Sequence record: ON528742
DNA length: 64,000 nucleotides
From: Shigella phage ESh32
Direction: 5' to 3' (one strand)
The number at the start of each line of letters is the position of its first letter. Position 1 is the stretch's first letter. The notes below the pieces were generated by a model. That model worked only from the letters and a program-made list of their open reading frames with translations, did no database searches and had not been told where the DNA came from. The position numbers and the translations under genes are program-made. Below are positions 2,650-63,864 of this stretch, piece by piece.

Positions 2650-3111
2650 ATGACTATCAATACAGAAGTTTTTATCCGTCGAAATAAGCTTCGTCGTCAC
2701 TTTGAGTCGGAGTTTCGTCAAATTAACAATGAGATTCGTGAAGCATCAAAAGCAGCAGGAGTCTCATCGTTTCATCTAAAATATTCTCAACATCTTCTTG
2801 ATCGTGCAATTCAACGGGAGATTGATGAGACATATGTTTTTGAATTATTCCATAAAATAAAAGACCATGTTTTAGAAGTTAATGAATTCCTGAGTATGCC
2901 TCCGCGTCCTGACATTGACGAGGATTTTATTGATGGGGTTGAATATCGTCCTGGACGTTTAGAAATCACAGATGGAAATCTTTGGCTTGGATTTACGGTT
3001 TGTAAACCTAATGAGAAGTTCAAAGACCCGTCACTTCAATGTAGGATGGCAATTATCAACAGTCGTCGTTTACCAGGAAAGGCTTCTAAAGCAGTAATTA
3101 AAACTCAATGA
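2650..3111 (+). CDS. regB: RegB site-specific endoribonuclease
   Basis: 153-aa ORF matches remembered T4 RegB (MTINTEVFIRRNKLRRHFESEFRQ...); AAGAGGAG RBS. Confidence 0.8.
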   Translation: MTINTEVFIRRNKLRRHFESEFRQINNEIREASKAAGVSSFHLKYSQHLLDRAIQREIDETYVFELFHKIKDHVLEVNEFLSMPPRPDIDEDFIDGVEYRPGRLEITDGNLWLGFTVCKPNEKFKDPSLQCRMAIINSRRLPGKASKAVIKTQ

Positions 3112-6798: not shown

Positions 6799-6829
6799 GT
6801 TTACTTTCCGTTTGAGCTGTGATACTATA
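6799..6829 (+). promoter_or_regulatory. T4-type early promoter
   Basis: ggtttactttcc ... gatactatac; part of a cassette repeated at 47679-47771. Confidence 0.5.
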
Positions 6830-6856
6830 CAACTATCGGATAAAGAGGAGAACATC

Positions 6857-7045
6857 ATGAAAATTGAAGCACTCAATCAAGAAGGAAATATCTACGTTAT
6901 CATTAATGGTGATTTTTTCGTCGACATGGATGAAGTTACTAGTGAAGAACTTGTAGAACTTCTTAAGAAACGTTATAATATGTGTGATGAAGTTGCAACT
7001 CACATGGCGTGTGCAATATTCTCTCTGTCATATGTGGTGGAATAA
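6857..7045 (+). CDS. hypothetical small protein
   Basis: ORF 6812..7045; ATG at 6857 preceded by AAGAGGAG. Confidence 0.5.
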
Positions 7046-7610: not shown

Positions 7611-7640
7611 GTTTACAAGTTGGCAAGGTTATGGTATAGT
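7611..7640 (+). promoter_or_regulatory. T4-type early promoter
   Basis: gtttacaagttggcaaggttatggtatagt. Confidence 0.55.
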
Positions 7641-7668
7641 AATCTTGTCGACTGCCAAGGAGAAGAGA

Positions 7669-10505: not shown

Positions 10506-10531
10506 AGGGAGCCTTCGGGCTCCCTTTTTTA
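10506..10531 (+). terminator. intrinsic terminator
   Basis: agggagccttcgggctccct + tttttt. Confidence 0.8.
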
Positions 10532-10554
10532 TTTCAAAAATTTTTCACAAAGTT

Positions 10555-10584
10555 GTTTACAAGCATAAAGCTTTATGGTACTAT
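10555..10584 (+). promoter_or_regulatory. T4-type early promoter with A/T-rich upstream element (cassette copy A)
   Basis: aaaaatttttcacaaagttgtttacaag ... atggtactat. Confidence 0.6.
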
Positions 10585-10618
10585 ACAACTATCAACTGAT
10601 ACGGATTTGGAGAATAAA

Positions 10619-11587
10619 ATGAAAACTGTAACTATCAATAAGGGTATCTACTTCGGTAAAGAAATCTCTGGAACTTTTGAGCTCTTAGGCGAATGGTTCC
10701 CAGATAATGCTCCGGTAGATGCACAAGGAGATGGTAAAGTTTTTGTTGAAATTGACGGTAAACGTCGCGGTGTTTGGGTTTACAAATCAGACATTTCATA
10801 TGATGGTGTAAAAGTTGAAGAAGTTAAAGAATCATATGAAGATATGAAAACCCGCATTAATAAAAGATTTAATGTTATGGGAATGATGACGAATGGTATT
10901 ATTAACGGAAACATTCGTTCATTAATTATCTCTGGTGCGGCGGGTATTGGTAAAACGTATTCTTTAGATAAAGCTTTAAATAAAGCAAATGATATTGGAT
11001 ACATTGAATATAAAAGCATTAACGGTAAAATCTCCGGTATCGGTCTTTATGAGCAGCTTTGGAATAATCGTGAAGAGAATTCTGTCCTTTTGATTGATGA
11101 TGTGGATGTTTTCTCTGATATGGACATTCTTAATCTTCTGAAAGCTGCTCTGGACACCGGAGAGACCCGTAAAGTCTGCTGGAGCACCGCATCTTCTTAC
11201 TTAGAAGAAAAAGGCATTGAGCGTGAGTTTGAATTTAAAGGAACGATTGTTTTTATCACAAACGTTGACATTGACCGCGAATTAGACCGTGGTACTAAAC
11301 TTGCTCCACATTTACAAGCATTAGTGTCCCGCTCAGTTTATTTGGATTTGGGTGTTCACACTAATGAAGAAATTATGGTCAGGGTTGAAGATGTTATTCT
11401 TTCAACTGACATGATGCAAAAGCGCGGTCTTTCTGATGAAGAAACTTATAAAGCATTATCATGGATGAAAGTCAATGTTAATCGTTTACGCAATGTTTCA
11501 CTGCGTACTGCTCTTTATCTTGCTGACTTTATTATGACCGACAAAAACGGTTGGGAAGAAATTGCTGAAACGGTATTATTAAAATGA
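10619..11587 (+). CDS. AAA+/P-loop ATPase
   Basis: Walker A GAAGIGKTY, Walker B VLLIDDVD; ATG at 10619 after GGAG in the conserved leader. Confidence 0.65.
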   Translation: MKTVTINKGIYFGKEISGTFELLGEWFPDNAPVDAQGDGKVFVEIDGKRRGVWVYKSDISYDGVKVEEVKESYEDMKTRINKRFNVMGMMTNGIINGNIRSLIISGAAGIGKTYSLDKALNKANDIGYIEYKSINGKISGIGLYEQLWNNREENSVLLIDDVDVFSDMDILNLLKAALDTGETRKVCWSTASSYLEEKGIEREFEFKGTIVFITNVDIDRELDRGTKLAPHLQALVSRSVYLDLGVHTNEEIMVRVEDVILSTDMMQKRGLSDEETYKALSWMKVNVNRLRNVSLRTALYLADFIMTDKNGWEEIAETVLLK

Positions 11588-12303
11588 AAAAATATTTTAC
11601 TATCTATAAAACTGAAATATTAAATTTAAAGACAGGTATTAAGAAATACTATTATGGTCGACATATAACTAATAACATCAATGATTCGTATGTTGGTAGT
11701 GGAAATTATATAGAACGTGTAAAAGTGTCAAATGACCATATATTATCAAAAACGGTTTTAGAAGTTTTTGATAATTATGATAAAATGGTACAAGCCGAAA
11801 TATTATATATCATGGCAGGTAAATTGAAATATGGAAAAAACTGCGTTAACCTGTCATATGGGGGTGAAGGAGGAAAGGTTGCAGATGAAACTAGGATAAA
11901 ATGTAAAAAGCATTCTATAAATTTATGGAAAAATCCTAATCATATAGAGCATATGAAGAAAAAGATGAAAGAGGTCACATCCACGCCGGAAGCTAAATTA
12001 AACACTTCAATAAAAACTTCACAACGATATAAGGACCCAGCTTTTGTTAGAAAAGTTAGTAATATTATTAAAAAGACACTAAGCAATCCTACAGTAAAAG
12101 AAAAGCACATTAATGGAATTAAAGCTGCAAAGCGTTCTCATTTAACTATATGGCAGTATGAAGATGAATTATTCGAGCTTTGGAAAGAAACTAAATACGG
12201 ATGGAGAAAATTTACAAAGGAAGCTATAAAACACGGTTATCCAAATGAACCTTATCGTAGTATGGTATCAACTTTTCAGAAAAGACATTTAGAAGAATCG
12301 TAA
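11584..12303 (+). CDS. GIY-YIG family homing endonuclease-like protein (seg-like)
   Basis: N-terminal FTIYKTEILNLKTGIKKYYYGRH (GIY..YIG-like spacing, following Arg); basic C-terminal region. Confidence 0.6.
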   Translation: MKKYFTIYKTEILNLKTGIKKYYYGRHITNNINDSYVGSGNYIERVKVSNDHILSKTVLEVFDNYDKMVQAEILYIMAGKLKYGKNCVNLSYGGEGGKVADETRIKCKKHSINLWKNPNHIEHMKKKMKEVTSTPEAKLNTSIKTSQRYKDPAFVRKVSNIIKKTLSNPTVKEKHINGIKAAKRSHLTIWQYEDELFELWKETKYGWRKFTKEAIKHGYPNEPYRSMVSTFQKRHLEES

Positions 12304-12385: not shown

Positions 12386-12688
12386 ATGTTATACTCAAAG
12401 GCTCGTGAAATTTACGAAACTAAAATTAAAGAAGCAGTATTTCAGTTCGCAACAACAATGCGATGGACCAATGATTGGGAATATTCAAAAAATCATAAGA
12501 AGCCCCTGGTGACAAGAAAGGCTCATATGTTAGTGTTAATAGACCGTGAGCAGATTAAAGCCCGAGAAGCTCTCCAGAATCATAAAAAGGCTGCCTTTGA
12601 ATGGTTTATGGATAACACTGCTCCTGAGACTAAGAAAGCAGTGAGCGCGTGGTTCAGTGGAAAAAATTGTGAAAGAAGTTTCTTTTAG
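12386..12688 (+). CDS. hypothetical protein
   Basis: ORF 12374..12688; start at 12386 preferred for spacing from GGAGG, 12374 possible. Confidence 0.45.
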   Translation: MLYSKAREIYETKIKEAVFQFATTMRWTNDWEYSKNHKKPLVTRKAHMLVLIDREQIKAREALQNHKKAAFEWFMDNTAPETKKAVSAWFSGKNCERSFF

Positions 12689-12690
12689 TT

Positions 12691-12720
12691 GTTTACAAGA
12701 CCGTTCCTCTGTGGTACTAT
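12691..12720 (+). promoter_or_regulatory. T4-type early promoter (cassette copy B)
   Basis: gtttacaagaccgttcctctgtggtactat. Confidence 0.6.
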
Positions 12721-12748
12721 ACAACTATCAACTACGGAGGAACAGAAA

Positions 12749-13276
12749 ATGAATGCTAAAGATATTTTCAACCTGGTAAATTACAACGATGGTAAATTTA
12801 AATCAGAAGCACAAAGCAAGTTCTTTAATGACATCTCAATCGGAGGTGAAATCACGGTTGACGGAGGACAAATTTACAAATCCCGTTGGAATTGGATCGT
12901 TATTATTGACGAGATCGGTATTGTAGAAATTTACAAAAATACGAATAAAAATCGTACATTACACTGGTCTCGTGATACTAACGAACAGTACAAAAAGGAT
13001 AAAGCATCTAAATTATCTCGTGTAACTCAAGAAGATATTGAGTTCATCAAGAAAGATATTTTGATGTATGATAACTTAATTGCTGAAGAGCAAGCTGTTA
13101 TTGATAAATTTGACGAGATTAAAGCTTCTCGTGAAATTCCTGATTTTATGAAAGAATCAGTAAATGAACGATACACTCTCATTTCAGAGCGTATTGAAAC
13201 TTACAAAAAGCAAAGAGCTGAACGCCAGAATACTCTTCGGAAGTTTGAAGAACGGTTAAAGACGGTACTCGCATAA
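12749..13276 (+). CDS. hypothetical protein with C-terminal coiled coil
   Basis: ORF 12689..13276; ATG at 12749 after GGAGG; C-terminal heptad-like helix. Confidence 0.55.
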   Translation: MNAKDIFNLVNYNDGKFKSEAQSKFFNDISIGGEITVDGGQIYKSRWNWIVIIDEIGIVEIYKNTNKNRTLHWSRDTNEQYKKDKASKLSRVTQEDIEFIKKDILMYDNLIAEEQAVIDKFDEIKASREIPDFMKESVNERYTLISERIETYKKQRAERQNTLRKFEERLKTVLA

Positions 13277-14642: not shown

Positions 14643-15662
14643 ATGAAAACTCGTTCTCAAATTGAAGATATGGTTCGTAATGCCAGCTATACTCGTGATG
14701 TTATGACATTTTTGTGCCAAAATAATTTAGACCCTGATAGAGTTAATAGTTCCATTCACTTTAAGTATATGAATAGCAGTGAATGGTTACGTCATTTTAG
14801 TAAAGCGGGATATATTACACAAATGACTGCTCGTGAGCAGCTCACCGATTTCTGTAAAACTATTGATTATAAAAATCCTCTATTTGTTCAAGGTGTTGGT
14901 CAGAGTAAGGTTGATTTATCATCTGGATTTTTCAATCCCAATCATTATCGTATTGAATGGAGATTTATTGCTCTATTCCGTAAACAGTTAAAGCAAATTT
15001 TGTCGACAGCTAGTCGATTAAAAGGTTCTGACATTAACTTAAAGAACCTGAAATTTGATGGTTATACTCTTCAGATGGAAGTAAGACCATTAAAAGAAAA
15101 TAATAGAACTGCACGAATTAGCTTTAAACCTAATACAAAAAATTCTCTTTCAATTTGTGAATGCCTTAAATCACAGTTGACAGAAGCATTTAAGTATATG
15201 GATGTTGTTGCCGCTGTTCAGTCTAAGATTTTACCTCGTTTTGAACGATTTAAGTTAGATACAACAACGTATGAACTTGATATGATCGTTTCATTTAAAT
15301 ACGATTTTTTGAGAAAGGACGAAGTCCCGCAAGAGAAAAAGCAGGAAGTACAAGATAACTTAAATTTATCCAATTACTTATCAAACGATCCTAAATTTTG
15401 GATGTATAGTTCAGGTAATAATGATGCATGGAAATTCAATAAAGTGAATTTTCTTCCTGTTGAAAATCCGAGTCTTAAACCTGTTGAAAAATGGCACGCG
15501 GATGCGATTGAGAAGTCTATCAAGGCAGTAGATGATGAACTCGTTAAAGCGACCAATGAAGTGCTAGAAGCTGAAAAGGCGTTAGAACAAGCTCAGTCAA
15601 GGGTTCAAAATCTGACAAAGCAACGTTCTAAACTGAACAATGCATTAAATGCACTGAACTAG
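14643..15662 (+). CDS. hypothetical protein with C-terminal coiled coil
   Basis: 339 aa; AAGGAA RBS. Confidence 0.6.
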   Translation: MKTRSQIEDMVRNASYTRDVMTFLCQNNLDPDRVNSSIHFKYMNSSEWLRHFSKAGYITQMTAREQLTDFCKTIDYKNPLFVQGVGQSKVDLSSGFFNPNHYRIEWRFIALFRKQLKQILSTASRLKGSDINLKNLKFDGYTLQMEVRPLKENNRTARISFKPNTKNSLSICECLKSQLTEAFKYMDVVAAVQSKILPRFERFKLDTTTYELDMIVSFKYDFLRKDEVPQEKKQEVQDNLNLSNYLSNDPKFWMYSSGNNDAWKFNKVNFLPVENPSLKPVEKWHADAIEKSIKAVDDELVKATNEVLEAEKALEQAQSRVQNLTKQRSKLNNALNALN

Positions 15663-15691
15663 TTTACTTTGCCACAAGGATGTGGTATAAT
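15662..15691 (+). promoter_or_regulatory. T4-type early promoter
   Basis: agtttactttgccacaaggatgtggtataat; near-duplicate of promoter at 60182. Confidence 0.6.
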
Positions 15692-20438: not shown

Positions 20439-22252
20439 CAATTGAAAAAGAAATTGAAGGATTGATTCATAAAACTAATAAAGACCTTTTAAACGAGAAT
20501 GCTAATAAAGATTCTCGTGTTTTTCCAACTCAACGGGACCTTATGGCTGGTATTGTGTCTAAACACATTGCCAAAAATATGGTCCCGTCTTTTATTATGA
20601 AAGCGCATGAAAGCGGAATTATCCATTTCCATGATATTGATTATTCCCCTGCTCTTCCATTTACTAATTGCTGTTTAGTAGATTTAAAAGGAATGCTTGA
20701 AAACGGATTTAAGCTAGGTAATGCGCAGATTGAAACTCCTAAATCAATTGGCGTTGCTACTGCAATTATGGCACAAATTACTGCGCAAGTTGCTTCCCAT
20801 CAATATGGCGGAACGACTTTTGCGAATGTAGATAAAGTACTTTCTCCTTATGTTAAACGCACCTATGCAAAACATATTGAGGATGCAGAAAAATGGCAAA
20901 TCGCTGATGCGTTAAATTATGCTCAATCTAAAACAGAAAAAGATGTATACGATGCATTCCAAGCTTATGAATATGAAGTAAATACTCTCTTTAGTTCAAA
21001 CGGACAAACGCCTTTTGTAACAATTACATTTGGTACGGGAACTGACTGGACTGAACGAATGATTCAGAAAGCAATTCTGAAAAATCGTATTAAAGGTCTT
21101 GGTCGTGATGGGATAACTCCTATTTTCCCTAAGCTTGTTATGTTTGTTGAAGAAGGTGTTAATCTTTATAAAGATGATCCGAACTATGATATTAAACAGC
21201 TTGCTCTAGAGTGCGCAAGCAAAAGGATGTATCCTGATATTATTTCAGCTAAGAACAATAAAGCTATCACTGGTTCATCTGTTCCTGTTTCTCCGATGGG
21301 TTGCCGTAGTTTCTTGAGCGTATGGAAAGATTCGACTGGCAATGAAATTCTTGATGGACGTAATAATCTTGGTGTTGTAACACTGAATCTTCCTCGTATC
21401 GCATTAGATTCTTATATTGGAACACAGTTCAATGAACAGAAATTTATCGAATTGTTCAATGAACGAATGGATTTATGTTTTGAAGCTTTGATGTGTAGAA
21501 TTAGTTCCTTAAAAGGAGTTAAAGCGACTGTTGCTCCTATTCTTTACCAAGAAGGTGCATTCGGGGTTCGTCTTAAACCTGATGACGACATAATTGAGTT
21601 ATTTAAAAACGGTAGAAGTTCAGTGTCTTTAGGATACATTGGTATTCATGAATTGAATATTCTTGTCGGTCGTGATATTGGACAAGAAATTTTAACTAAA
21701 ATGAATGCTCGTCTTAAGCAGTGGACCGAAAGAACCGGTTTTGCTTTTAGCTTGTATTCTACTCCTGCTGAAAACCTTTGCTATCGCTTCTGTAAACTTG
21801 ATACTGAAAAATATGGAAGTGTAAAAGATGTTACTGATAAAGGCTGGTACACTAACAGTTTCCACGTTTCAGTAGAAGAAAATGTTACTCCGTTTGAAAA
21901 GATTTCTCGTGAAGCGCCATATCATTTCATTGCGACAGGTGGTCACATTTCTTATGTTGAACTTCCTGATATGAAAAATAACTTAAAAGGTCTTGAGGCT
22001 GTATGGGATTATGCCGCACAACATTTAGATTATTTTGGTGTTAATATGCCAGTGGATAAATGTTTTACATGTGGAAGTACCCATGAAATGACTCCTACTG
22101 AAAACGGATTTGTTTGTTCTATTTGTGGAGAAACTGATCCTAAAAAGATGAACACAATAAGAAGAACATGTGGTTATTTGGGAAATCCGAACGAACGCGG
22201 ATTTAATCTCGGTAAAAATAAAGAAATCATGCATAGGGTTAAACACCAATGA
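20435..22252 (+). CDS. nrdD: anaerobic ribonucleoside-triphosphate reductase, intronless
   Basis: 605 aa; C-terminal Zn ribbon CxxC...CxxC and glycyl-radical motif RRTCGY. Confidence 0.95.
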   Translation: MTIEKEIEGLIHKTNKDLLNENANKDSRVFPTQRDLMAGIVSKHIAKNMVPSFIMKAHESGIIHFHDIDYSPALPFTNCCLVDLKGMLENGFKLGNAQIETPKSIGVATAIMAQITAQVASHQYGGTTFANVDKVLSPYVKRTYAKHIEDAEKWQIADALNYAQSKTEKDVYDAFQAYEYEVNTLFSSNGQTPFVTITFGTGTDWTERMIQKAILKNRIKGLGRDGITPIFPKLVMFVEEGVNLYKDDPNYDIKQLALECASKRMYPDIISAKNNKAITGSSVPVSPMGCRSFLSVWKDSTGNEILDGRNNLGVVTLNLPRIALDSYIGTQFNEQKFIELFNERMDLCFEALMCRISSLKGVKATVAPILYQEGAFGVRLKPDDDIIELFKNGRSSVSLGYIGIHELNILVGRDIGQEILTKMNARLKQWTERTGFAFSLYSTPAENLCYRFCKLDTEKYGSVKDVTDKGWYTNSFHVSVEENVTPFEKISREAPYHFIATGGHISYVELPDMKNNLKGLEAVWDYAAQHLDYFGVNMPVDKCFTCGSTHEMTPTENGFVCSICGETDPKKMNTIRRTCGYLGNPNERGFNLGKNKEIMHRVKHQ

Positions 22253-22719
22253 ATTACGATAGATTTTATCCTTGCGATTTTGTTAATGGCCCTGGTTGCA
22301 GGGTCGTTCTTTTCGTTACAGGTTGTTTGCATAAATGCGAAGGGTGTTATAATAAATCAACATGGAATGCTAGAAATGGTATTCCATTCACTGGTGAAAC
22401 ACTAGAACAATTAATTGAATGTTTGAATAATGATTATATGGAAGGATTGACTATAACCGGAGGAGACCCTCTCTATCCTGATAACCGAGATGTTATTCAC
22501 TCTGTAGTTCAAACTATTAAAAATCTTTATCCCAATAAAAGCATTTGGTTGTGGACAGGATATAAGTTTGAAGATATTAAACAGCTAGAAATGCTTAAAT
22601 ATGTTGATGTTATTATTGATGGGAAGTATGAGAAAAATCTTCCGACCAAAAAGCTGTGGCGAGGATCAGATAATCAGCGACTTTGGTCAAATACCGATGG
22701 GGTGTGGACACATGATTAA
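22249..22719 (+). CDS. nrdG: anaerobic RNR activating enzyme (radical SAM)
   Basis: CLHKCEGC radical-SAM-type Cys cluster; ATGA overlap with nrdD. Confidence 0.9.
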   Translation: MNYDRFYPCDFVNGPGCRVVLFVTGCLHKCEGCYNKSTWNARNGIPFTGETLEQLIECLNNDYMEGLTITGGDPLYPDNRDVIHSVVQTIKNLYPNKSIWLWTGYKFEDIKQLEMLKYVDVIIDGKYEKNLPTKKLWRGSDNQRLWSNTDGVWTHD

Positions 22720-27036: not shown

Positions 27037-27060
27037 AAACCAAAACAAAGAGGATATTAA

Positions 27061-28263
27061 ATGAAAGTATGTATTTTTATGGCTCGAGGTCTTGAAGGTT
27101 GTGGTGTAACAAAATTCTCACTCGAGCAACGTGATTGGTTTATTAAAAATGGTCATGAAGTGACTTTGGTTTATGCTAAAGATAAATCATTTACTCGTAA
27201 TTGCGCGCATGATTATAAATCATTTTCAATTCCGGTTTTATTGGCAAAAGAATACGATAAAACACTTAAGCTGGTAAATGATTGTGATATTCTAATTATC
27301 AATTCAGTTCCTGCTACTTCGGTTGAAGAAGACACTATTAATAACTATAAAAAAATTATTGATAACATTAAACCTTCTGTTCGTGTTGTAGTTTATCAGC
27401 ATGACCATTCTTCTCTTTCTTTGCGTCGAAATTTGGGATTAGAAGAAACTGTTCGTCGAGCTGATGTTATTTTTAGCCATTCTGATAATGGTGATTTTAA
27501 TAAAGTTCTGATGAAAGAATGGTATCCTGAAACAGTTTCTCTGTTTGATGATATTGAAGAAGCACCGACCGTATATAACTTTCAGCCTCCTATGGATATT
27601 GCGAAAGTTCGATCAACCTATTGGAAAGATGTTTCTGAAATTAATATGAATATCAACCGTTGGATTGGTCGTACGACTACATGGAAAGGTTTTTATCAGA
27701 TGTTTGATTTTCACGAAAAACATCTTAAACCTGCAGGACTAAGTACTATTATGGAAGGTCTGGAACGTTCTCCAGCGTTCATTCCTATTAAAGAAAAAGG
27801 AATTCCATACGAGTATTATCGTCTTCATCAAGTAGACCAAATTAAAATTGCTCCTAATTTGCCAACGCAAATTCTTGACCGTTATGTAAATAGCGAAATG
27901 CTTGAACGTATGAGTAAATCCGGTTTTGGTTATCAGTTGAGTAAGTTGGATAAAAAATATCTACAGCGCTCTTTAGAATATACTCATCTCGAGCTTGGTG
28001 CATGTGGAACAATTCCGGTATTTTGGAAATCTACTGGCGAAAATTTAAAATTCCGTGTTGATAATACTCCTTTGACCTCGCATGATAGCGGTATCATTTG
28101 GTTTGATGAAAATGATATGGAATCAACATTTGAACGTATTAAAGAACTGTCATCTGACCGAGCTCTTTATGACCGTGAGCGAGAAAAAGCATATGAATTT
28201 TTGTATCAGCACCAAGATTCAAGCTTCTGCTTTAAAGAACAGTTTGACATTATTACAAAATAA
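27061..28263 (+). CDS. a-gt: DNA alpha-glucosyltransferase
   Basis: 400 aa; matches remembered T4 alpha-gt (CIFMARGLEGCGVTKFSLEQRDWFIKNGHEVTLVYAKDKSF...). Confidence 0.9.
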   Translation: MKVCIFMARGLEGCGVTKFSLEQRDWFIKNGHEVTLVYAKDKSFTRNCAHDYKSFSIPVLLAKEYDKTLKLVNDCDILIINSVPATSVEEDTINNYKKIIDNIKPSVRVVVYQHDHSSLSLRRNLGLEETVRRADVIFSHSDNGDFNKVLMKEWYPETVSLFDDIEEAPTVYNFQPPMDIAKVRSTYWKDVSEINMNINRWIGRTTTWKGFYQMFDFHEKHLKPAGLSTIMEGLERSPAFIPIKEKGIPYEYYRLHQVDQIKIAPNLPTQILDRYVNSEMLERMSKSGFGYQLSKLDKKYLQRSLEYTHLELGACGTIPVFWKSTGENLKFRVDNTPLTSHDSGIIWFDENDMESTFERIKELSSDRALYDREREKAYEFLYQHQDSSFCFKEQFDIITK

Positions 28264-28280
28264 AGGGCTTCGGCCCTTTA
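28263..28280 (+). terminator. UUCG-loop hairpin terminator
   Basis: aagggcttcggccctt directly after alpha-gt stop. Confidence 0.6.
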
Positions 28281-28302
28281 GCTTTATACGGAGTTTGATA
28301 TA

Positions 28303-32283: not shown

Positions 32284-32970
32284 ATGAAACTGTCTAAAGA
32301 TACACTGAATATTTTGAAAAATTTCGCTACTATTAACTCCGGTATTATGCTTAAATCCGGTCAATTTATTATGACTCGCGCAGTTAATGGTACAACTTAT
32401 GCGGAAGCAAATATTTCTGACGTTATTGATTTTGATGTAGCAATTTACGATTTGAACGGTTTTCTCGGTATTCTGTCTCTAGTTAATGATGATGCAGAAA
32501 TTTCCCAGTCAGAAGATGGAAATATTAAAATTGCTGATGCTCGCTCAACAATTTTTTGGCCAGCAGCCGATCCGAGTACAGTAGTTGCTCCTAATAAACC
32601 AATTCCATTCCCGGTAGCATCTGTTGTTACTGAAATTAAAGCTGAAGACCTTCAACAGCTGTTGCGTGTATCTCGTGGTCTGCAAATTGATACAATTGCT
32701 ATCACGGTAAAAGAAGGTAAAATCGTAATTAACGGTTTTAATAAAGTAGAAGATTCTGCTTTGACTCGTGTTAAATATTCTTTGACTCTTGGTGATTATG
32801 ATGGTGAAAATACATTTAATTTCATTATCAATATGGCAAATATGAAAATGCAACCAGGAAATTATAAACTTCTGCTCTGGGCAAAAGGTAAACAAGGTGC
32901 TGCTAAATTTGAAGGTGAACACGCGAATTATGTAGTAGCTCTTGAAGCTGATTCTACCCACGATTTTTAA
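32284..32970 (+). CDS. 45: sliding clamp gp45
   Basis: 228 aa; matches remembered T4 gp45. Confidence 0.9.
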   Translation: MKLSKDTLNILKNFATINSGIMLKSGQFIMTRAVNGTTYAEANISDVIDFDVAIYDLNGFLGILSLVNDDAEISQSEDGNIKIADARSTIFWPAADPSTVVAPNKPIPFPVASVVTEIKAEDLQQLLRVSRGLQIDTIAITVKEGKIVINGFNKVEDSALTRVKYSLTLGDYDGENTFNFIINMANMKMQPGNYKLLLWAKGKQGAAKFEGEHANYVVALEADSTHDF

Positions 32971-32973
32971 TAG

Positions 32974-32990
32974 AGGGCTTCGGCCCTTTA
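32974..32990 (+). terminator. UUCG-loop hairpin (terminator or attenuator)
   Basis: agggcttcggccct followed by ttataattt. Confidence 0.5.
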
Positions 32991-33021
32991 TAATTTACAC
33001 TAAAACTTGAATGAGGAAATT

Positions 33022-34916: not shown

Positions 34917-34926
34917 GGTAAATTAT

Positions 34927-35163
34927 ATGACACAATCAGAGATTCAGTTTACCGAAGCTTTTCTAATATTCGAAAATCTAAAACAAGCATATGGTCTGTC
35001 TTCTACTCAACTGGTTTTTGACCTCCCGGAAGATAAACAAATAGAATTCCAAAAAGAATTCCAACGATTAGTTTACCCACGCCAACGCGCATTTCATGCG
35101 ATTATCAAAACCACAAATAAAGATGGCAAGTCCGTTATATCGCGTCGTACAATAGAAATTTAA
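34927..35163 (+). CDS. hypothetical protein
   Basis: ORF 34876..35163; ATG at 34927. Confidence 0.5.
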   Translation: MTQSEIQFTEAFLIFENLKQAYGLSSTQLVFDLPEDKQIEFQKEFQRLVYPRQRAFHAIIKTTNKDGKSVISRRTIEI

Positions 35164-37952: not shown

Positions 37953-37975
37953 AGGGACCTCCGGGTCCCTTTTTC
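37953..37975 (+). terminator. intrinsic terminator
   Basis: agggacctccgggtccct + tttt. Confidence 0.75.
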
Positions 37976-38057
37976 ATACAAGTAATATAAATCTATACTT
38001 ATGAAAAACAGATGATTCTGGACCTTTAGAATTCATTAAAAATTTTTTCACAAAACT

Positions 38058-38088
38058 GTTTACAAGACTGTTCTTCCATGGTACTATA
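38058..38088 (+). promoter_or_regulatory. T4-type early promoter (cassette copy C)
   Basis: aattttttcacaaaactgtttacaag ... atggtactat. Confidence 0.6.
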
Positions 38089-38124
38089 TCAATATCAACT
38101 ACTGATACGGATTTGGAGAATGAA

Positions 38125-38505
38125 ATGAAAATCGCTATTTTGGTTATTGCATTAGGTCTTACTGGTTGTGTGGCTCAAGGACCGGTAGTAAATCAGTCTG
38201 ATGTAGGAAAAATTGTAAACTGTTCAAGCAAATTTTATAATCCTAATGTCAAGTGTTATAAAGAAGCTCCAAATCAAACAGTCGAACAAATGCAGGCGAA
38301 TTTTGACGAAGCTATTCGTCCAGATGAATCTGCTCAAGCATATCGTAATTCTGATGTAATTACACGCGAAGAAAAAATTGAAAACTACTGCGCCGAGCTT
38401 TGGGCTAATTGGGCTAATAATTACCAATGGCGTACTGGTAAAAATGCTCCGATGGAGTATGTAGTGAATTCTTATAATTCATGTGTAAAAAATTTGACTA
38501 AGTGA
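38125..38505 (+). CDS. lipoprotein
   Basis: signal peptide with lipobox LTGC; ATG at 38125 (track ORF starts at TTG 38113). Confidence 0.55.
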   Translation: MKIAILVIALGLTGCVAQGPVVNQSDVGKIVNCSSKFYNPNVKCYKEAPNQTVEQMQANFDEAIRPDESAQAYRNSDVITREEKIENYCAELWANWANNYQWRTGKNAPMEYVVNSYNSCVKNLTK

Positions 38506-42102: not shown

Positions 42103-43530
42103 GTGGTAGAAATTATTCTTTCTCATCTCATATTTGATCAAGCTTATTTTTCAAAAGTTTGGCCATATATGGATTCAGAATATTTTGAAAGTGGTCCAGC
42201 TAAAAATACATTCAAATTAATTAAATCTCATGTTAATGAGTACCATAGCGTTCCATCTATTAATGCGTTAAATGTTGCATTAGAAAATAGTTCATTTACT
42301 GAAACAGAATATTCTGGTGTAAAAACACTTATTTCAAAACTAGTTGATTCTCCAGAAGATCACAGTTGGTTAGTAAAAGAAACTGAAAAATATGTTCAGC
42401 AACGAGCAATGTTTAATGCTACGTCTAAAATAATCGAAATTCAAACTAATGCTGAGCTTCCTCCGGAAAAACGAAATAAGAAAATGCCGGATGTTGGTGC
42501 TATTCCTGACATCATGCGTCAAGCATTATCAATTTCATTTGATAGCTACGTTGGTCATGATTGGATGGATGACTACGAAGCACGTTGGCTATCTTATATG
42601 AATAAAGCTCGTAAGGTTCCATTTAAACTCAGAATTCTAAACAAAATTACTAAAGGCGGAGCTGAGACTGGAACACTGAACGTTTTAATGGCTGGTGTTA
42701 ACGTTGGTAAATCATTAGGACTTTGTTCATTAGCAGCAGATTATTTGCAGCTTGGTCATAACGTTCTTTATATCTCCATGGAAATGGCAGAAGAAGTCTG
42801 TGCTAAGCGTATTGATGCTAATATGCTTGATGTTTCTCTTGATGACATTGATGATGGGCATATTTCTTACGCTGAGTATAAAGGAAAAATGGAAAAATGG
42901 CGTGAGAAATCTACTCTCGGTCGTTTAATCGTTAAACAATATCCTACTGGTGGAGCAGACGCTAATACATTCAGGTCTCTCTTGAATGAATTGAAGCTCA
43001 AAAAGAATTTTGTTCCAACAATCATTATTGTCGACTATCTAGGTATTTGTAAATCTTGCCGCATTAGAGTTTATTCAGAAAATAGTTACACAACTGTTAA
43101 AGCTATTGCAGAGGAATTACGTGCTCTGGCTGTTGAAACCGAAACCGTTCTTTGGACTGCAGCACAGGTTGGTAAACAAGCTTGGGACTCTTCCGATGTT
43201 AACATGAGCGATATTGCAGAATCTGCTGGTCTTCCAGCAACAGCTGATTTTATGCTTGCGGTCATTGAAACCGAGGAGCTAGCAGCTGCTGAACAACAAC
43301 TCATTAAGCAAATCAAATCACGATATGGCGATAAGAATAAGTGGAATAAGTTTTTGATGGGTGTTCAAAAAGGAAATCAGAAATGGGTAGAAATTGAACA
43401 AGATTCTACTCCAACCGAAGTGAACGAAGTAGCAGGTTCACAACAGATTCAGGCTGAGCAGAATCGCTATCAAAGAAATGAATCAGCTCGAGCTCAGTTA
43501 GATGCTTTGGCGAATGAATTAAAATTTTAG
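42103..43530 (+). CDS. 41: replicative helicase gp41 (DnaB-like), GTG start
   Basis: 475 aa; Walker A GVNVGKS; no in-frame ATG near N-terminus. Confidence 0.9.
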   Translation: MVEIILSHLIFDQAYFSKVWPYMDSEYFESGPAKNTFKLIKSHVNEYHSVPSINALNVALENSSFTETEYSGVKTLISKLVDSPEDHSWLVKETEKYVQQRAMFNATSKIIEIQTNAELPPEKRNKKMPDVGAIPDIMRQALSISFDSYVGHDWMDDYEARWLSYMNKARKVPFKLRILNKITKGGAETGTLNVLMAGVNVGKSLGLCSLAADYLQLGHNVLYISMEMAEEVCAKRIDANMLDVSLDDIDDGHISYAEYKGKMEKWREKSTLGRLIVKQYPTGGADANTFRSLLNELKLKKNFVPTIIIVDYLGICKSCRIRVYSENSYTTVKAIAEELRALAVETETVLWTAAQVGKQAWDSSDVNMSDIAESAGLPATADFMLAVIETEELAAAEQQLIKQIKSRYGDKNKWNKFLMGVQKGNQKWVEIEQDSTPTEVNEVAGSQQIQAEQNRYQRNESARAQLDALANELKF

Positions 43531-43559
43531 TTTACAAGCTGACAAGACTATGGTATAGT
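43530..43559 (+). promoter_or_regulatory. T4-type early promoter
   Basis: gtttacaagctgacaagactatggtatagt. Confidence 0.6.
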
Positions 43560-43587
43560 AGTCTTGTTGGTTAATGAGGAGATTGTT

Positions 43588-44029: not shown

Positions 44030-44059
44030 CTGTTTACTTTTGTTGGAAATTGAGATACT
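44030..44059 (+). promoter_or_regulatory. T4-type early promoter
   Basis: gtttacttttgttggaaattgagatactat. Confidence 0.55.
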
Positions 44060-44089
44060 ATATAAACATAAACTACTGAGGAGATTATC

Positions 44090-44383
44090 ATGAAAAAATT
44101 TGTTTTTGCTGCAATTTTTGCTTTAGCTTCTTGTGCTGCTCAGCCTGCTATGGCAGGTTATGATAAAGATTTGTGTGAATGGTCTATGACTGCGGATCAG
44201 ACTGAAGTTGAAACTCAGATTGAAGCAGATATTATGAATATCGTTGAGCGTGATCGCCCTGAAATGAAAGCTGAAGTACAAAAACAGCTTAAGTCTGGTG
44301 GTGTAATGCAGTATAATTATGTTTTGTATTGCGATAAAAACTTTAATAACAAAAATATCGTAACTGAAATCACAGGTGAATAA
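44090..44383 (+). CDS. sp: spackle periplasmic protein Sp
   Basis: 97 aa with signal peptide; position between 41 and 61. Confidence 0.7.
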   Translation: MKKFVFAAIFALASCAAQPAMAGYDKDLCEWSMTADQTEVETQIEADIMNIVERDRPEMKAEVQKQLKSGGVMQYNYVLYCDKNFNNKNIVTEITGE

Positions 44384-44384: not shown

Positions 44385-45017
44385 ATGATTTATTATATGC
44401 ACAAAAATCCACCGTTTAAATACGGTAAATTTCCTGATGCACAATGTTATAATATAACGCCTGATGAAAATAACCGTGGATATCTTATTGGCACAATTTT
44501 TGTAATTGTTAAAGATAACGAAATCGTTGCCTGGGCAGATTTTAAAGGTACAACACATGATGTTAATCCGGTGCCTTTCACATATTACAATATAATGGAT
44601 TTGGCATATGATTATAATTGGTTTAATCATGACACGTTGGCTCATATTGAAGGTGTAGGATTTGACATCTCTTATTCTAGCTACTCGTTGTGTCCTATGA
44701 GTCGGGCTCATAAAGAACCTGAATATTTTTCATTTAGGAAACGTGTAAACTTTAAACGCAACACAGAGTATGTCGGTGGAATCTTTGTTAAAGATAATCG
44801 AATTATTCGTATTAATTATCCTTTGAGCGTTAGTCAAAAAGATATTGATGTTGATTTAGATTTCACTGAAAATAATATTAATCATATTGCTTCTGTGTAT
44901 TTTGGTATCGATCACAAAATTGTAATATGTGGATATGAATTACCGTTTGAAGAACAGTCTAAAGTAAATGTTTCTATTGACGATCAAATTTTTAATGCTT
45001 TTATGAATAAAGGTTAA
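44385..45017 (+). CDS. hypothetical protein (shares C-terminal motif with next gene)
   Basis: ORF 44376..45017 (GTG 44376); ends ...SIDDQIFNAFMNKG. Confidence 0.55.
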   Translation: MIYYMHKNPPFKYGKFPDAQCYNITPDENNRGYLIGTIFVIVKDNEIVAWADFKGTTHDVNPVPFTYYNIMDLAYDYNWFNHDTLAHIEGVGFDISYSSYSLCPMSRAHKEPEYFSFRKRVNFKRNTEYVGGIFVKDNRIIRINYPLSVSQKDIDVDLDFTENNINHIASVYFGIDHKIVICGYELPFEEQSKVNVSIDDQIFNAFMNKG

Positions 45018-45018
45018 T

Positions 45019-45375
45019 ATGTATAGTTCTGAATTTTCATATTTAAAAATGGAAAAAATTTCATACGATTTTATAGATGAAAAGGTTTATTATAGTTTCC
45101 ATGAACCACGTTTTAATAGTGAGGTTGGGTTTATTGTAGTAAAAGACAATTTCATTTTAAAGATATATTCGGCATTAAAGGATTTTCACTACGAAAATAT
45201 TAACCTAAAATTTGATAAAGAAAACGTTCGTAATTGTGCAGTAACAATTACAGGAAATAAAGGTACGTGTGTTATGTTATCTGATGAAATTAATGATTTG
45301 CTAAATGATGCCGAAAAGGTTGCTATTCCATCTATTGATGACCAAATTTTTAATGCTTTTATGAATAGAGGTTAA
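45019..45375 (+). CDS. hypothetical protein (shares C-terminal motif with previous gene)
   Basis: 118 aa ending ...SIDDQIFNAFMNRG. Confidence 0.55.
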   Translation: MYSSEFSYLKMEKISYDFIDEKVYYSFHEPRFNSEVGFIVVKDNFILKIYSALKDFHYENINLKFDKENVRNCAVTITGNKGTCVMLSDEINDLLNDAEKVAIPSIDDQIFNAFMNRG

Positions 45376-45376
45376 T

Positions 45377-45541
45377 ATGAAAACATATAAAGAATTTATT
45401 AAAGAAGATATGGTAGCTGGAGATTCAGGTGGTAATCCTGAAAATATCTCTACTGGAACAACATCAGGTGCTGTAGTAAATAAAGGTCCTGAACAGATTC
45501 CTAAAAAGAAAAAAGAGGAATCTAAAGAAAAAGAAGAGTAA
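45377..45541 (+). CDS. possible lysine-rich small protein
   Basis: 54 codons read from sequence. Confidence 0.4.
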   Translation: MKTYKEFIKEDMVAGDSGGNPENISTGTTSGAVVNKGPEQIPKKKKEESKEKEE

Positions 45542-46769: not shown

Positions 46770-46782
46770 ATGTCCTCCTTAT

Positions 46783-46806
46783 TGCTTTATATATTTATTG
46801 TATAAT
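46783..46806 (+). promoter_or_regulatory. candidate MotA-dependent middle promoter for gene 56
   Basis: TGCTTTA, 11 nt, TATAAT. Confidence 0.5.
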
Positions 46807-46840: not shown

Positions 46841-47359
46841 ATGGCTTACTTTAACGAATGTTCACAACTGATTGAAGGCGCTGATAAAGCTCAAAATGAA
46901 TATTGGGATATTCTCGGTGATGAAAAAGACCCGCTGCAGGTAATGCTCGATATGCAGAAATCTCTGCAAGTTCGTTTAGCTAAAGATAAACCTGAATATA
47001 ATCGTCATCCTGATGACTTGGCTACTGCAGGTGAAGTTGTTGATTGGTTGCGTAATCAGAAAGATTATATTGACGATGAATTCCGTGAACTTCTGACTTC
47101 TCTTGGTGGTATGAGCAATGGTGAAAAAGATGCATCTGCTGTATGGAAACCTTGGAAGTCGCAGCATGGTGAACGTCGTGAAACTCTGATTACTGATTTG
47201 TCTCCACAAGACCAATTGGAAATTAAATTTGAAATGATTGATATTCTCCATTTCGTTCTGAACATGTTCCAAGGTCTTGGTCTTACAGCAGAAGAAATCT
47301 TTAAACTTTATTATCTAAAAAATGCCGAAAACTTTGCTCGTCAAGACCGAGGTTATTAA
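46841..47359 (+). CDS. 56: dCTPase/dCDPase gp56 (MazG-like)
   Basis: ORF 46748..47359; ATG at 46841 gives 172 aa MAYFNECSQLIEGADKAQNEYWDILGDEKDPLQ... Confidence 0.85.
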   Translation: MAYFNECSQLIEGADKAQNEYWDILGDEKDPLQVMLDMQKSLQVRLAKDKPEYNRHPDDLATAGEVVDWLRNQKDYIDDEFRELLTSLGGMSNGEKDASAVWKPWKSQHGERRETLITDLSPQDQLEIKFEMIDILHFVLNMFQGLGLTAEEIFKLYYLKNAENFARQDRGY

Positions 47360-47389
47360 CAGCTCGTCTTAAAAGCCGCGAGAATTTAT

Positions 47390-47397
47390 TATAAATA
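47390..47397 (+). promoter_or_regulatory. late promoter TATAAATA upstream of soc
   Basis: exact TATAAATA about 30 nt upstream of soc ATG. Confidence 0.6.
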
Positions 47398-55591: not shown

Positions 55592-56095
55592 ATGATTAAA
55601 AATAATGCTGTTTATCAATTGAAAAAATTTGATGAAATTAAGAATTTTCCGGTACTGTCTAATACAGCTCATAATAAGTTTTGTGAACTTCTTGCTTTAA
55701 CTGGCGGATATCCTTTTACTGTTATTAGTGTTAATAGCGGAATTCTTATCGGCATGATGTATATTGAAATTAGAAACTATTATGGAATGGTGTCATCGCT
55801 TATTATTTATGAAAAAGATTTTAGTCTATTGACAGAAATTGAAAAAGAAGAACAGGAAAAATCCCATATTGATATGGATTTAGTTTCTATGTATGTGGCA
55901 CCAGTTGAAAAAATTGAAGACCCGACTGATTTGTTGTGTAAGGCAGTTTACATTCGTCGTCCATTCGCGAATCCGGTCGGCGGTTGGGTAACTGACCAGT
56001 GGATTGAAGATGGCGTTGAACTTCTTAATGTAGTTCATGCTGGAGAGTATTCTGTCGTTCCTCGCAGCGCAGTGATTAATGTTCGTGTAAGCTAG
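55592..56095 (+). CDS. hypothetical protein (paralog of 56169..56660)
   Basis: C-terminal ...GGWVTDQWIEDGVELLNVVHAGEYSVVPRS. Confidence 0.5.
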   Translation: MIKNNAVYQLKKFDEIKNFPVLSNTAHNKFCELLALTGGYPFTVISVNSGILIGMMYIEIRNYYGMVSSLIIYEKDFSLLTEIEKEEQEKSHIDMDLVSMYVAPVEKIEDPTDLLCKAVYIRRPFANPVGGWVTDQWIEDGVELLNVVHAGEYSVVPRSAVINVRVS

Positions 56096-56168: not shown

Positions 56169-56660
56169 ATGAATATTAATATCGGCGAAATTGCTCGTGT
56201 ATCTGATAAATCCCGTTCTAAAGCAGCAGGAAAATTGGTCGAAGTTGTAAGCATTCAGCTTAAACACGGTGTTAAAGATGAAGATTCTGAAGTAAAAGTA
56301 CGTATCATTGCTAAAGATGGAATGTCTAAGCCCCAGTTTGGTTATGTTCGATGGAAATTTCTTGAGCCTGCGTTTTTGAAAGCTGTTCCTGCTAAAGGAA
56401 TTGAAACGATTGATACTTCGCATGTAGGTGTAGACTTTAAGTGGAAACTTGGTCAAGCTATCAAGTTCATTGCTCCTTATGAGTTTGAATTTACCGAAGG
56501 TGGACAACCACTTCCTCGGCGTACTCGCGCTATGTGTGCATACATTACTGATCAATGGGTAGAAGATGGCGTTAAGTTATACAACGCGGTATTTTTAGGA
56601 ACATACAAAGTCATTCCTGAAAGTTGGATTAAACACTATAGCAAAGCTCGCTATGCATAA
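56169..56660 (+). CDS. hypothetical protein (paralog of 55592..56095)
   Basis: C-terminal ...AYITDQWVEDGVKLYNAVFLGTYKVIPES. Confidence 0.5.
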   Translation: MNINIGEIARVSDKSRSKAAGKLVEVVSIQLKHGVKDEDSEVKVRIIAKDGMSKPQFGYVRWKFLEPAFLKAVPAKGIETIDTSHVGVDFKWKLGQAIKFIAPYEFEFTEGGQPLPRRTRAMCAYITDQWVEDGVKLYNAVFLGTYKVIPESWIKHYSKARYA

Positions 56661-56684
56661 AGTTTAAAATTTTTTCATAAAACT

Positions 56685-56714
56685 ATATACATCAGTAGTT
56701 GATTATGGTACTAT
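56685..56714 (+). promoter_or_regulatory. degenerate copy of the early promoter/leader cassette (copy D)
   Basis: ttttttcataaaactatatacatcag ... atggtactat, with -35 degenerated relative to copies A and C. Confidence 0.4.
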
Positions 56715-56832
56715 ATCAATATCAACTACTGATATAGAAAATAATTTGGAGAATAAAATGGAAAATTTGCCAAAGGTGCTGCTACTCTTCTGAAATGCAT
56801 CGCTCCAATGTTCAATTAACGAGGAAATTGTA

Positions 56833-57048
56833 ATGAAACGTAAAATTGTTCAGAACTGCACTAATGACGAATTTGAAGATGTGTTATTCGATCCAGATTT
56901 GGTAGTAGTTCAAAAGGAACACACTGCTAAGTTTACTCACTTGACTTCGGTTTATGTGTATGAAAAGGTTGGGGATAAACAACCAATTTACGGTGTATTT
57001 CGTGAAATCACTGAAGATGGTACAACTTACTGGAAGGAAATTTATTAA
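56833..57048 (+). CDS. hypothetical protein
   Basis: 71 aa; GAGGAAA RBS. Confidence 0.5.
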
Positions 57049-58034: not shown

Positions 58035-58295
58035 ATGAAATATGTTAATCGTTCTATCGCAGCATTAGTATTAGCAGTATCTTTAGTAGGATGTACTGAT
58101 GCTGATAATGCAACCAAAGTTTTATCTTCAAGTGGTTTTACTAATATTGAAATCACTGGATATAATTGGTTTGGTTGTTCTGAAAATGATTTCCAACATA
58201 CTGGATTTCGTGCTATTGGACCTACTGGGCAGAAAGTAGAAGGAACCGTGTGTTCTGGTCTATTCTTCAAGGATTCGACTATCCGTTTTAAATAA
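58035..58295 (+). CDS. lipoprotein
   Basis: ORF 58026..58295 (GTG); ATG at 58035; lipobox LVGC. Confidence 0.5.
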   Translation: MKYVNRSIAALVLAVSLVGCTDADNATKVLSSSGFTNIEITGYNWFGCSENDFQHTGFRAIGPTGQKVEGTVCSGLFFKDSTIRFK

Positions 58296-58296
58296 A

Positions 58297-58313
58297 AGGC
58301 CTTCGGGCCTTTA
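58297..58313 (+). terminator. UUCG-loop hairpin
   Basis: aggccttcgggcct followed by ttagcttta. Confidence 0.55.
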
Positions 58314-58364
58314 GCTTTATGATTGCCGGAGTATAATATTCCCGAAACCAAACGAGGATAAGTG

Positions 58365-60182: not shown

Positions 60183-60211
60183 TTTACTTTACCACAAGGA
60201 TGTGGTATAAT
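60182..60211 (+). promoter_or_regulatory. T4-type early promoter
   Basis: agtttactttaccacaaggatgtggtataat. Confidence 0.6.
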
Positions 60212-63606: not shown

Positions 63607-63801
63607 ATGTTAGGTTATCAAGCACGAGTAAAAGAAGAATACGATCAATTAATGCTCAAAATTAATGCACTGAGCAAATTTTTAGAAAGCGCAAAGTTTC
63701 TAACGGTTAGTGCAGTTGAGCAAGAACTGCTGCTTTCACAGTTCATCTCAATGAAATCTTATGCTGAGTGTCTAGAGAAAAGAATCGCACAATTCAAATA
63801 A
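63607..63801 (+). CDS. hypothetical protein
   Basis: 64-aa ORF. Confidence 0.5.
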   Translation: MLGYQARVKEEYDQLMLKINALSKFLESAKFLTVSAVEQELLLSQFISMKSYAECLEKRIAQFK

Positions 63802-63804
63802 AAT

Positions 63805-63827
63805 AAGGGCTTCGGCCCTTTTGTTTT
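63805..63827 (+). terminator. intrinsic terminator
   Basis: aagggcttcggccctt + ttgtttt. Confidence 0.7.
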
Positions 63828-63864
63828 AAGAGAAATTATGATTCCGACATAAAGGAAAGTCTAA

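Follow-up and report, generated by a model that had tools for sequence, protein, structure and literature searches.

The window analysed here is a stretch of 64,000 nucleotides of the genome of Shigella phage ESh32 (ON528742), which sequence comparison identifies as a Tequatrovirus closely related to T4. For the greater part of the window, identity to AR1, T6, RB32 and T4 is 96-99%, and the + strand is the equivalent of the T4 early strand. An earlier note on this DNA had pointed to four repeated cassettes, each composed of an early promoter, a 5' leader and a ribosome-binding site. All four were found on the + strand where that note had placed them. Copy 1 is located between nrdC.11 and nrdC.10, copy 2 between nrdC.9 and nrdC.8, copy 3 between gene 43 and imm.1 and copy 4 between a motB homologue and cef. 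By position and sequence, the four are orthologues of the T4 early promoters lying 5' of nrdC.10, nrdC.8, imm.1 and cef. The T4 record U76612 carries annotated -35 and -10 signals for the orthologues of copies 1 and 2; the former bears the label 'early promoter 54.4' and follows a terminator that is annotated as well.

The proteins encoded downstream are unrelated, as the earlier note had claimed: nrdC.10 encodes an AAA-like NTPase, the nrdC.8 product is without a Pfam match, the imm.1 product is a DUF5481 protein with a lipoprotein-like N-terminus and the neighbour of copy 4 is Cef. The claim is overstated for copy 4, the ATG of which opens an ORF of only 11 codons, upstream of cef (56833-57048). 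A search of the whole window against Rfam gave zero matches to known RNA families. The features considered below are collected in Table 1.

Table 1. Positions of the cassettes and associated features in the ESh32 window
Feature	Position	Strand	Particulars
regB	2650-3111	+	153-aa ORF, collinear with T4 regB; predicted cutter of the cassette leaders at GGAG
mobD.5 promoter	6799-6860	+	Looser member of the subfamily; TACTATACAACTATCGG
Terminator after nrdC.11	10506-10531	+	Intrinsic; stem AGGGAGCC-TTCG-GGCTCCCT (10506-10525), then T run
Cassette copy 1, nrdC.10 promoter	10532-10621	+	UP region 10532-10554; -35 GTTTAC 10555-10560
Copy 1 core		+	TGG 10576-10578; -10 TACTAT 10579-10584; predicted +1 ~10591
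Copy 1 leader		+	28 nt; ATG 10619-10621
Copy 1 RegB/S1 site	10609-10619	+	GGAGAATAAAA; SD inside perfect site
Cassette copy 2, nrdC.8 promoter	12661-12751	+	Upstream part overlaps 3' end of nrdC.9
Copy 2 core		+	-35 12691-12696; -10 12715-12720; predicted +1 ~12727
Copy 2 leader		+	SD GGAGG 12736-12740; ATG 12749-12751
Copy 2 inverted repeat	12703-12743	+	13 bp; -19.4 kcal/mol, z -3.7; encloses -10
Terminator after gene 43	37953-37975	+	Intrinsic
Cassette copy 3, imm.1 promoter	38036-38127	+	-35 38058-38063; -10 38082-38087; predicted +1 ~38094
Copy 3 initial transcribed block		+	ATCAATATCAACT; same as copy-4 allele
Copy 3 leader		+	GGAGAATGAAA 38115-38125 (RegB consensus, 1 mismatch); ATG 38125-38127
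sp promoter	44032-44095	+	Looser member of the subfamily; GATACTATATAAACATAAACT
Cassette copy 4, motB-cef intergenic	56663-56760	+	UP region 56663-56684; degenerate -35 ATATAC 56685-56690
Copy 4 core and leader		+	-10 56709-56714; predicted +1 ~56721; GGAGAATAAAA 56748-56758; ATG 56758-56760
Copy 4 inverted repeat	56691-56733	+	13 bp, perfect; ATCAGTAGTTGAT / ATCAACTACTGAT; -21.1 kcal/mol, z -5.6; encloses -10
ORF remnant	56758-56793	+	11 codons

Anatomy of the cassettes and the sequence they share

The elements of each cassette follow the same order: an A/T-rich upstream region, a -35 element, a 17-bp spacer ending in TGG, the -10 element TACTAT, a predicted A start 7 nt past the -10 and a leader, the length of which is 22-37 nt across the copies. 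The 3' end of every cassette is formed by the Shine-Dalgarno (SD) sequence and the start codon of the downstream ORF. The extended -10, with TGG and TACTAT, is present in 4/4 copies, in agreement with the (G)GTACTAT reported previously. Other elements are less uniform than had been described. The hexamer GTTTAC, said to occur in each copy, is found in copies 1-3, which read TTTACA, N17, TACTAT, but copy 4 has ATATAC and hence TATACA, with one more mismatch. With this weakened -35, copy 4 scores 8/12 in a generic sigma-70 scan, one point under the threshold, and it was therefore not listed by that scan. Similarly, an A/T-rich upstream element is present in copies 1, 3 and 4, all of which also carry AAAATTTTTTCA(C/T)AAA upstream, whereas copy 2 has nrdC.9 coding sequence (stop codon at 12686-12688) in this position, with a lower A/T content.

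The copies resemble each other far more than a generic promoter consensus would require. A block of 21 nt, GGTACTATAYMANTATCAACT, which spans the extended -10 and continues into the transcribed region, has four exact matches in the window (10577, 12713, 38080 and 56707), against 0.04 expected from shuffled sequences, and an unbiased repeat search returned the same family (repeats D1, D2, D3 and D10). A script-based scan of the + strand of the window detected 17 convincing early promoters of the T4 type. Comparison of these 17 promoters showed that the -10 block TGGTACTAT is 100% identical among the four copies, against 74-76% otherwise, and that the identity in the 20 nt 3' of the -10 is 71% among the four, against 34-44% otherwise; the four copies are thus mutually closer than they are to the 13 other early promoters. 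To call them near-identical would nevertheless be an overstatement, the mean column identity in the full multiple alignment being 74%. Likewise, the leader thought to be identical in three copies, the 24-nt GATACGGATTTGGAGAATRAAATG, is common to two only (10598-10621 and 38104-38127). Copy 4 retains CTGATA and ATTTGGAGAATAAAATG with a 9-nt insert between them, and the leader of copy 2 is a different one, ACGGAGGAACAGAAAATG.

The four copies belong to a wider family. In T4, the 21-nt core occurs in 7 exact copies and in 13 copies with up to 5 mismatches, all on the early strand, where it precedes ndd.6, ndd.4, motA, frd.3, trna.4, e.8, denV and mobD.5 as well as nrdC.10, nrdC.8, imm.1, sp and cef. 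The 50-nt block from the -10 to the ATG was found at 1410 places in 532 phage records, nearly all of them Tequatrovirus.

Given numerous dispersed copies, each about 90 nt long and all in one orientation, one might also think of a small mobile element that settles in front of genes, either of the MITE type or mobilised by a site-specific recombinase. However, the four-copy alignment reveals no terminal inverted repeats, target-site duplications or fixed ends, and a MITE or transposon was rejected on this account. The similarity decays differently in each copy, the copies occupy orthologous positions in T4 and hundreds of relatives, and they have neither a transposase nor a recombinase associated with them; moreover, no pair of empty and filled sites differing by exactly the cassette and a target duplication was seen. 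An origin of this kind is extremely improbable.

Predicted RegB targets and hairpins around the promoters

The phage endoribonuclease RegB cuts within the SD of early mRNAs and thereby inactivates them (PMC3014915), and its optimal target in the presence of ribosomal protein S1 has the consensus GGAGRAYARAA (Durand 2006, PMC1702504). In its conserved 3' part, the leader carries GGAGAATAAAA, which corresponds letter for letter to this published optimal site. Only two perfect matches to the consensus exist in the window, those of copies 1 and 4; copy 3 agrees at 10/11 positions and copy 2 at 8/11 (counted by eye for copy 2). Folding of the leaders from the predicted +1 gave 0 to -2.1 kcal/mol with z >= 0, which indicates that they are unstructured, a state that RegB needs. 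The sites are intergenic and lie in single-stranded leaders of predicted early transcripts, as is characteristic of RegB sites, and folding suggests that the site of copy 2 would be paired in read-through RNA. The arrangement resembles that of the RegB targets of T4 early mRNAs (PMC1702504) in that the site doubles as the SD, the leader is unstructured and regB is encoded by the same genome. It departs from them in the one mismatch of copy 3 and the 8/11 agreement of copy 2, the T4 orthologue of which, the nrdC.8 site, is reported to be only 'moderately cleaved' by RegB (PMC1702504); cleavage in ESh32 is predicted from sequence. We infer both the start sites and the RegB cuts of ESh32 from T4; a literature search found no T4 start-site maps covering these four promoters.

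The short palindrome TATCA..TGATA, previously taken for the stem-loop, could not be sustained as such. It has no significant RNA fold in the leaders, the arm spacing varies between the copies, and the hairpin was rejected. Other stem-loops lie close to three of the cassettes. The G+C-rich intrinsic terminator after nrdC.11 has its end some 25 nt ahead of the copy 1 -35 (its T4 orthologue is the terminator annotated in U76612) and is the stem-loop of copy 1 in the sense of the promoter-early stem-loop (PeSL) cassettes discussed below. In copy 2, the inverted repeat has one arm, GTTCCTCTGTGGT, in the promoter spacer and the other, ACTACGGAGGAAC, in the leader, including the SD; such a hairpin would form solely in read-through transcripts arriving from upstream. 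Among the few sequences compared by eye, the copy 2 stem shows zero two-sided compensatory covariation, the changes being between Watson-Crick and wobble pairs only. The inverted repeat of copy 4 is unchanged in T4, in Shigella phage A2 and in five IMG/VR loci. Copy 3 has no significant fold and no adjoining stem-loop, the nearest being the terminator that follows gene 43 and lies 88 nt ahead of the copy 3 -35.

A tentative proposal for the promoter-enclosing hairpins, and one that is rather unlikely to prove correct, is that they act as a switch at the RNA level. Read-through RNA would fold and hide the ribosome-binding site together with the RegB site, while RNA initiated at the cassette's own promoter, containing the 3' arm only, would be translated and then cut. 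If true, each cassette would be insulated at the level of translation in addition to that of transcription.

Approximately one-third of the early promoters in both ESh32 and T4, copies 2 and 4 included, lie inside a strong hairpin whose 5' arm coincides with the promoter spacer; its 3' arm corresponds to the initial transcribed region or the SD. Orthologous promoters of three other genera show this layout again, with unrelated stem sequences. In the window, the promoters of regB and motB.2 have the 5' arm ahead of the predicted start and the SD within the 3' arm, and there, as in copy 2, folding would be confined to read-through RNA. In the first 50 kb of RB69, the promoter pattern yielded 7 candidates, too few for a statistic on spacer/leader inverted repeats.

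A promoter inside a hairpin with the SD in the 3' arm, as in copy 2, regB and motB.2, is known from the T4 late genes e, soc, 49 and I-TevI (PMC3014915, PMC2988022). The published cases are all late promoters, whereas those of ESh32 are early and their effect is predicted. Since the reviews describe the layout for late promoters only, the early-promoter hairpins may go further than the literature.

Probable exchange between copies and gene turnover behind them

The spacer, the initial transcribed block and the leader are combined differently from locus to locus, so that the promoters are mosaics. In T4, the promoters of nrdC.10 and frd.3 are the same for 39 nt, counted from the -35, and have different leaders; the imm.1 and ndd.4 promoters have the spacer in common and the leader not; one leader is common to nrdC.8, ndd.4 and an ORF of RB68; and copies 2 and 3 of the window agree at 12/16 spacer positions. 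Copy 3 further carries three clustered substitutions which reproduce the copy-4 sequence and create a 30-nt block identical between the two. These substitutions are absent from the post-gene-43 cassette in 7/7 other genomes compared (T4, RB68 and five IMG/VR loci), and the copy 3 version of the window is matched at an identity of at least 99% in 2/499 records only. From the sequence comparison, we read the patch as the product of a recent ectopic conversion with copy 4 as the donor and copy 3 as the recipient; it could in principle also stem from a local templated mutation, by which TATCAA becomes a tandem repeat.

These observations bear on the possibility that the copies are alike through convergence alone, by selection on promoter, translation and RegB recognition, without common descent or exchange. 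Functional elements (UP, -35, TGn, -10, SD and the 11-nt RegB site) do cover much of the shared sequence. Yet the identity also covers parts of the spacers and of the initial transcribed region, for which no sequence requirement is known, and is mosaic across non-orthologous loci. A remnant at the ndd.6 locus of T4 contains codons 1-4 of imm.1, and a rare allele with three substitutions in copy 3 equals the sequence of copy 4. Pure convergence is therefore most unlikely, and homology between the copies is the preferred reading.

The earlier note had suggested checking whether the flanked genes are variably present in related phages; at two of the four loci, relatives do have different or additional ORFs immediately behind the cassette. 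Behind gene 43, three states were distinguished. In the window and in T4, the cassette is joined straight to imm.1; in RB68, T2 and others (31 records at >=95% identity), a leader of the nrdC.8 type and an 83-aa ORF intervene; and in the third state, a leader of the nrdC.10 type is followed by a membrane ORF of 78-85 aa. The swapped modules of leader and ORF start within the cassette, just past ATCAACTAC, and the state of the window would follow from the third through loss of the sequence separating two copies of ATGAAAAT, located at start codons. In the slot between motB and cef, Shigella phage A2, T2 and 261 records have an intact 89-aa ORF behind the cassette, of which the window and T4 retain the 11-codon remnant, the deletion joint being the microhomology GAAAATT inside the ORF. 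In contrast to these two loci, nrdC.10 and nrdC.8 are retained in about 460 related records, in which only the homing-endonuclease gene between them varies. In the Gelderlandvirus STML-198, 45/47 nt of the copy-1 block are kept in front of a 59-aa ORF inserted ahead of nrdC.10, and the coding flanks showed no detectable megablast similarity to the window.

Cassettes of comparable composition have been described as PeSLs in RB49 and phi1 (PMC2839356) and in PST/T4 and nt-1/KVP40 (PMC4122927). The variable ORFs behind the imm.1 and cef cassettes, together with the conversion patch, fit the published model of PeSL-mediated shuffling. A stronger form of this model would regard the cassettes as the vehicles of shuffling, with recombination between copies, perhaps through mini-circles, as the main source of gene content at these loci. 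Mini-circles between PeSLs were shown in RB49 and phi1 (Arbiol 2010) and have been proposed for T4/PST (Comeau 2014). Copies 1 and 2 form a pair of direct repeats at a distance of 2136 bp and have identical blocks of 13 nt and 22 nt, and the start of the post-gene-43 modules inside the cassette and the patch between copies 3 and 4 point in the same direction. However, a comparison of one genome pair, the window and T4, located 0/38 boundaries of homology breaks inside the 17 cassettes (1.2 expected) and 1 within 100 bp of a cassette (3.2 expected), most of the indels between the two being homing-endonuclease genes or introns. Furthermore, both deletions that produced the state of the window made use of microhomologies of 7-8 nt and not of cassette pairs, and the nrdC.10 and nrdC.8 loci are stable. 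The stronger form thus has a real though lesser chance of being right for these loci.

Relation to known promoter cassettes and probable function

The most probable explanation, to which we assign a probability of about 0.85, is that the four sites constitute one subfamily of T4-type early promoters fused to a leader and a ribosome-binding site, homologous to one another, exchanging patches of sequence and edging slots in which the ORFs are variable. Promoter activity in ESh32 itself is deduced from the likeness to T4. The host sigma-70 RNA polymerase would recognise the A/T-rich UP region, the GTTTAC -35, the TGn extended -10 and TACTAT, each promoter being fused to a short, presumably unstructured 5' leader. 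Since the SD of copies 1, 3 and 4 sits within the optimal RegB/S1 target, each cassette most likely gives an immediate burst of expression, which RegB would shut off within minutes by cutting the ribosome-binding site. The likeness of the copies would be due partly to functional constraint and partly to true homology. They probably arose by duplication, and the exchange of patches would continue through the phage recombination system. On the same reading, the cassettes would mark the upstream edge of slots where small accessory ORFs are gained, lost and swapped.

The T4 early promoters are known to follow a 'UP/-35/TGn/-10' design and to possess 'additional regions of consensus' beyond the elements contacted by RNA polymerase (Hinton 2010, PMC2988021). 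The ESh32 promoters have the same elements, spacing and strand, and nothing essential differs, apart from the imm.1 promoter, where the initial transcribed region is represented by a rare allele. The PeSLs of T4/PST consist of an A/T-rich region, TTTACW N17 TAYWAT, an SD and an ATG (Comeau 2014, PMC4122927), and the PeSL subclasses include those with the stem-loop upstream of the -35 or overlapping the -10 (Arbiol 2010, PMC2839356). The ESh32 cassettes are similar composites of about 100 bp, the -35 and -10 elements of which fit the PST/T4 consensus, with a stem-loop upstream (copy 1) or over the -10 (copies 2 and 4) and variable small ORFs at two loci. They differ from PeSLs in that copy 3 lacks an adjoining stem-loop and the stems in copies 2 and 4, being rich in A/T and having no T run, are not canonical terminators. 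In addition, the events at the four loci require no recombination between cassette pairs. The match to PeSL shuffling cassettes suggested in the earlier note is accordingly a partial one, which holds for the composite of promoter, SD and ATG and for the variable ORFs at two loci but not for the palindrome, nor is there enrichment of boundaries relative to T4.

As all the elements have been published and the sites are orthologous to T4 promoters, the earlier note amounts to a rediscovery with some details wrong. The repeats are real, well explained and already known as members of a familiar group of very strong T4-type early promoters, and contain nothing new of principle. Their significance lies in showing that T4-like phages can carry their expression signals as a portable module of some 90 nt, in which a strong promoter and a short leader are joined to a ribosome-binding site and to a built-in site at which the message can be cut for shut-off, and in the small accessory genes that come and go right behind such modules. 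Cassettes of this type can be of use in annotating early transcription units and in locating the variable, probably host-adaptive ORFs in new Tequatrovirus genomes.

Hairpins around the early promoters

Early promoters of the window are found inside strong hairpins whose loop contains the -10; the promoters concerned, as judged by folding 66 nt from each -35, are listed in the table. Among the 17 T4-type early promoters detected by a script scan of the + strand, 7 of the 66-nt segments have an MFE of -18 kcal/mol or lower, as compared with 1.8% of random 66-nt windows, and the -10 is enclosed by the fold in 6 of these 7. Exact inverted repeats of at least 7 nt between the spacer of a promoter and its own leader were also counted, with cross pairs serving as the control; they occur in 9 of 30 promoters in T4 and in 4 of 17 in the window, the rate among the cross pairs being 4-5.5%. 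The SD lies within the 3' arm of the hairpin in the regB (2593), nrdC.8 (12691) and motB.2 (55012) promoters. When the aligned sequences of two stems were inspected by eye, every position at which the window departs from T4 was seen to change a Watson-Crick pair into a G.U pair on the mRNA strand.

Orthologues of the nrdC.8 and nrdC.10 promoters in three other genera likewise carry the -10 inside a stem of 10-13 bp, but the stem sequences are unrelated.

Coordinates of the features (window positions unless a locus is named)
Feature	Position	Remarks
Hairpin-embedded promoters	2593, 7611, 12691, 43530, 55012, 56685	66 nt folded from each -35
Stem enclosing -10, Mosigvirus SF	L040 646-711	MFE -14.2 kcal/mol
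Stem enclosing -10, Gaprivervirus SP18	L041 509-580	MFE -18.4 kcal/mol
Stem enclosing -10, Gelderlandvirus STML-198	L039 1749-1822	MFE -13.7 kcal/mol
GGGCTTCGGCCC stem-loops	28257-28287, 32967-32997, 58290-58320, 63799-63829, and others	
239-aa ORF	11584-12303	Between nrdC.10 and nrdC.9
167-aa ORF	55592-56095	Upstream of copy 4
163-aa ORF, full-length MotB-family protein	56169-56660	Upstream of copy 4; adjoins the 167-aa ORF
Sites of segments missing relative to T4	46780-46801, 47359-47390, 59782-59834, 20970-20973, 22249-22269, 27045-27070	

Other repeated elements of the window

The repeat search recovered further early-promoter pairs at distant loci, one near-identical (15660-15691 and 60180-60211, 31/32 nt) and the other with 77% identity over 53 nt (7611-7663 and 43530-43582); copies 1-4, the cassettes preceding nrdC.10, nrdC.8, imm.1 and an 11-codon remnant upstream of cef, are therefore not the sole promoter subfamily in the window.

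Terminator-like stem-loops of one GGGCTTCGGCCC family, whose flanks resemble each other (repeats D7, D9 and D11), are also scattered over the window.

Segments differing from T4 and its relatives

The 239-aa ORF is absent from T4 and most relatives and is annotated in AR1 and RB32 as a segE-like homing endonuclease; a Pfam search with it gave no match. Between regA and gene 43 the window carries a segment of 246 bp (34918-35162) that is lacking in T4 and, among the five IMG/VR loci covering the region, in four. A 49-nt direct repeat with 94% identity (44973-45021 and 45331-45379, spacing 358 bp) corresponds to 310 bp that are extra relative to T4, and its appearance suggests that a small gene near 61.1 was duplicated in tandem. 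Upstream of copy 4 (motB-cef intergenic region) lie the adjacent 167-aa and 163-aa ORFs; in Shigella phage A2 the tandem comprises three such paralogues.

Conversely, the window is without the T4 segments holding dam, segF, mobA/60.1 and the gene 60 split, the nrdD intron with I-TevII, mobC and mobB. The window's gene 39 is not split; at 606 aa (58362-60182) it equals that of RB69 in length.

The cassette at T4 ndd.6

The cassette that precedes ndd.6 in T4 (NC_000866, ~167064, not part of the window) is followed by ATGAAAATCGCT, corresponding to imm.1 codons 1-4, and then by an 8-codon dead end; at this locus other relatives carry an 87-93-aa ORF. Judged from the sequences, the imm.1 codons behind this cassette look like the footprint of an exchange between cassette copies.
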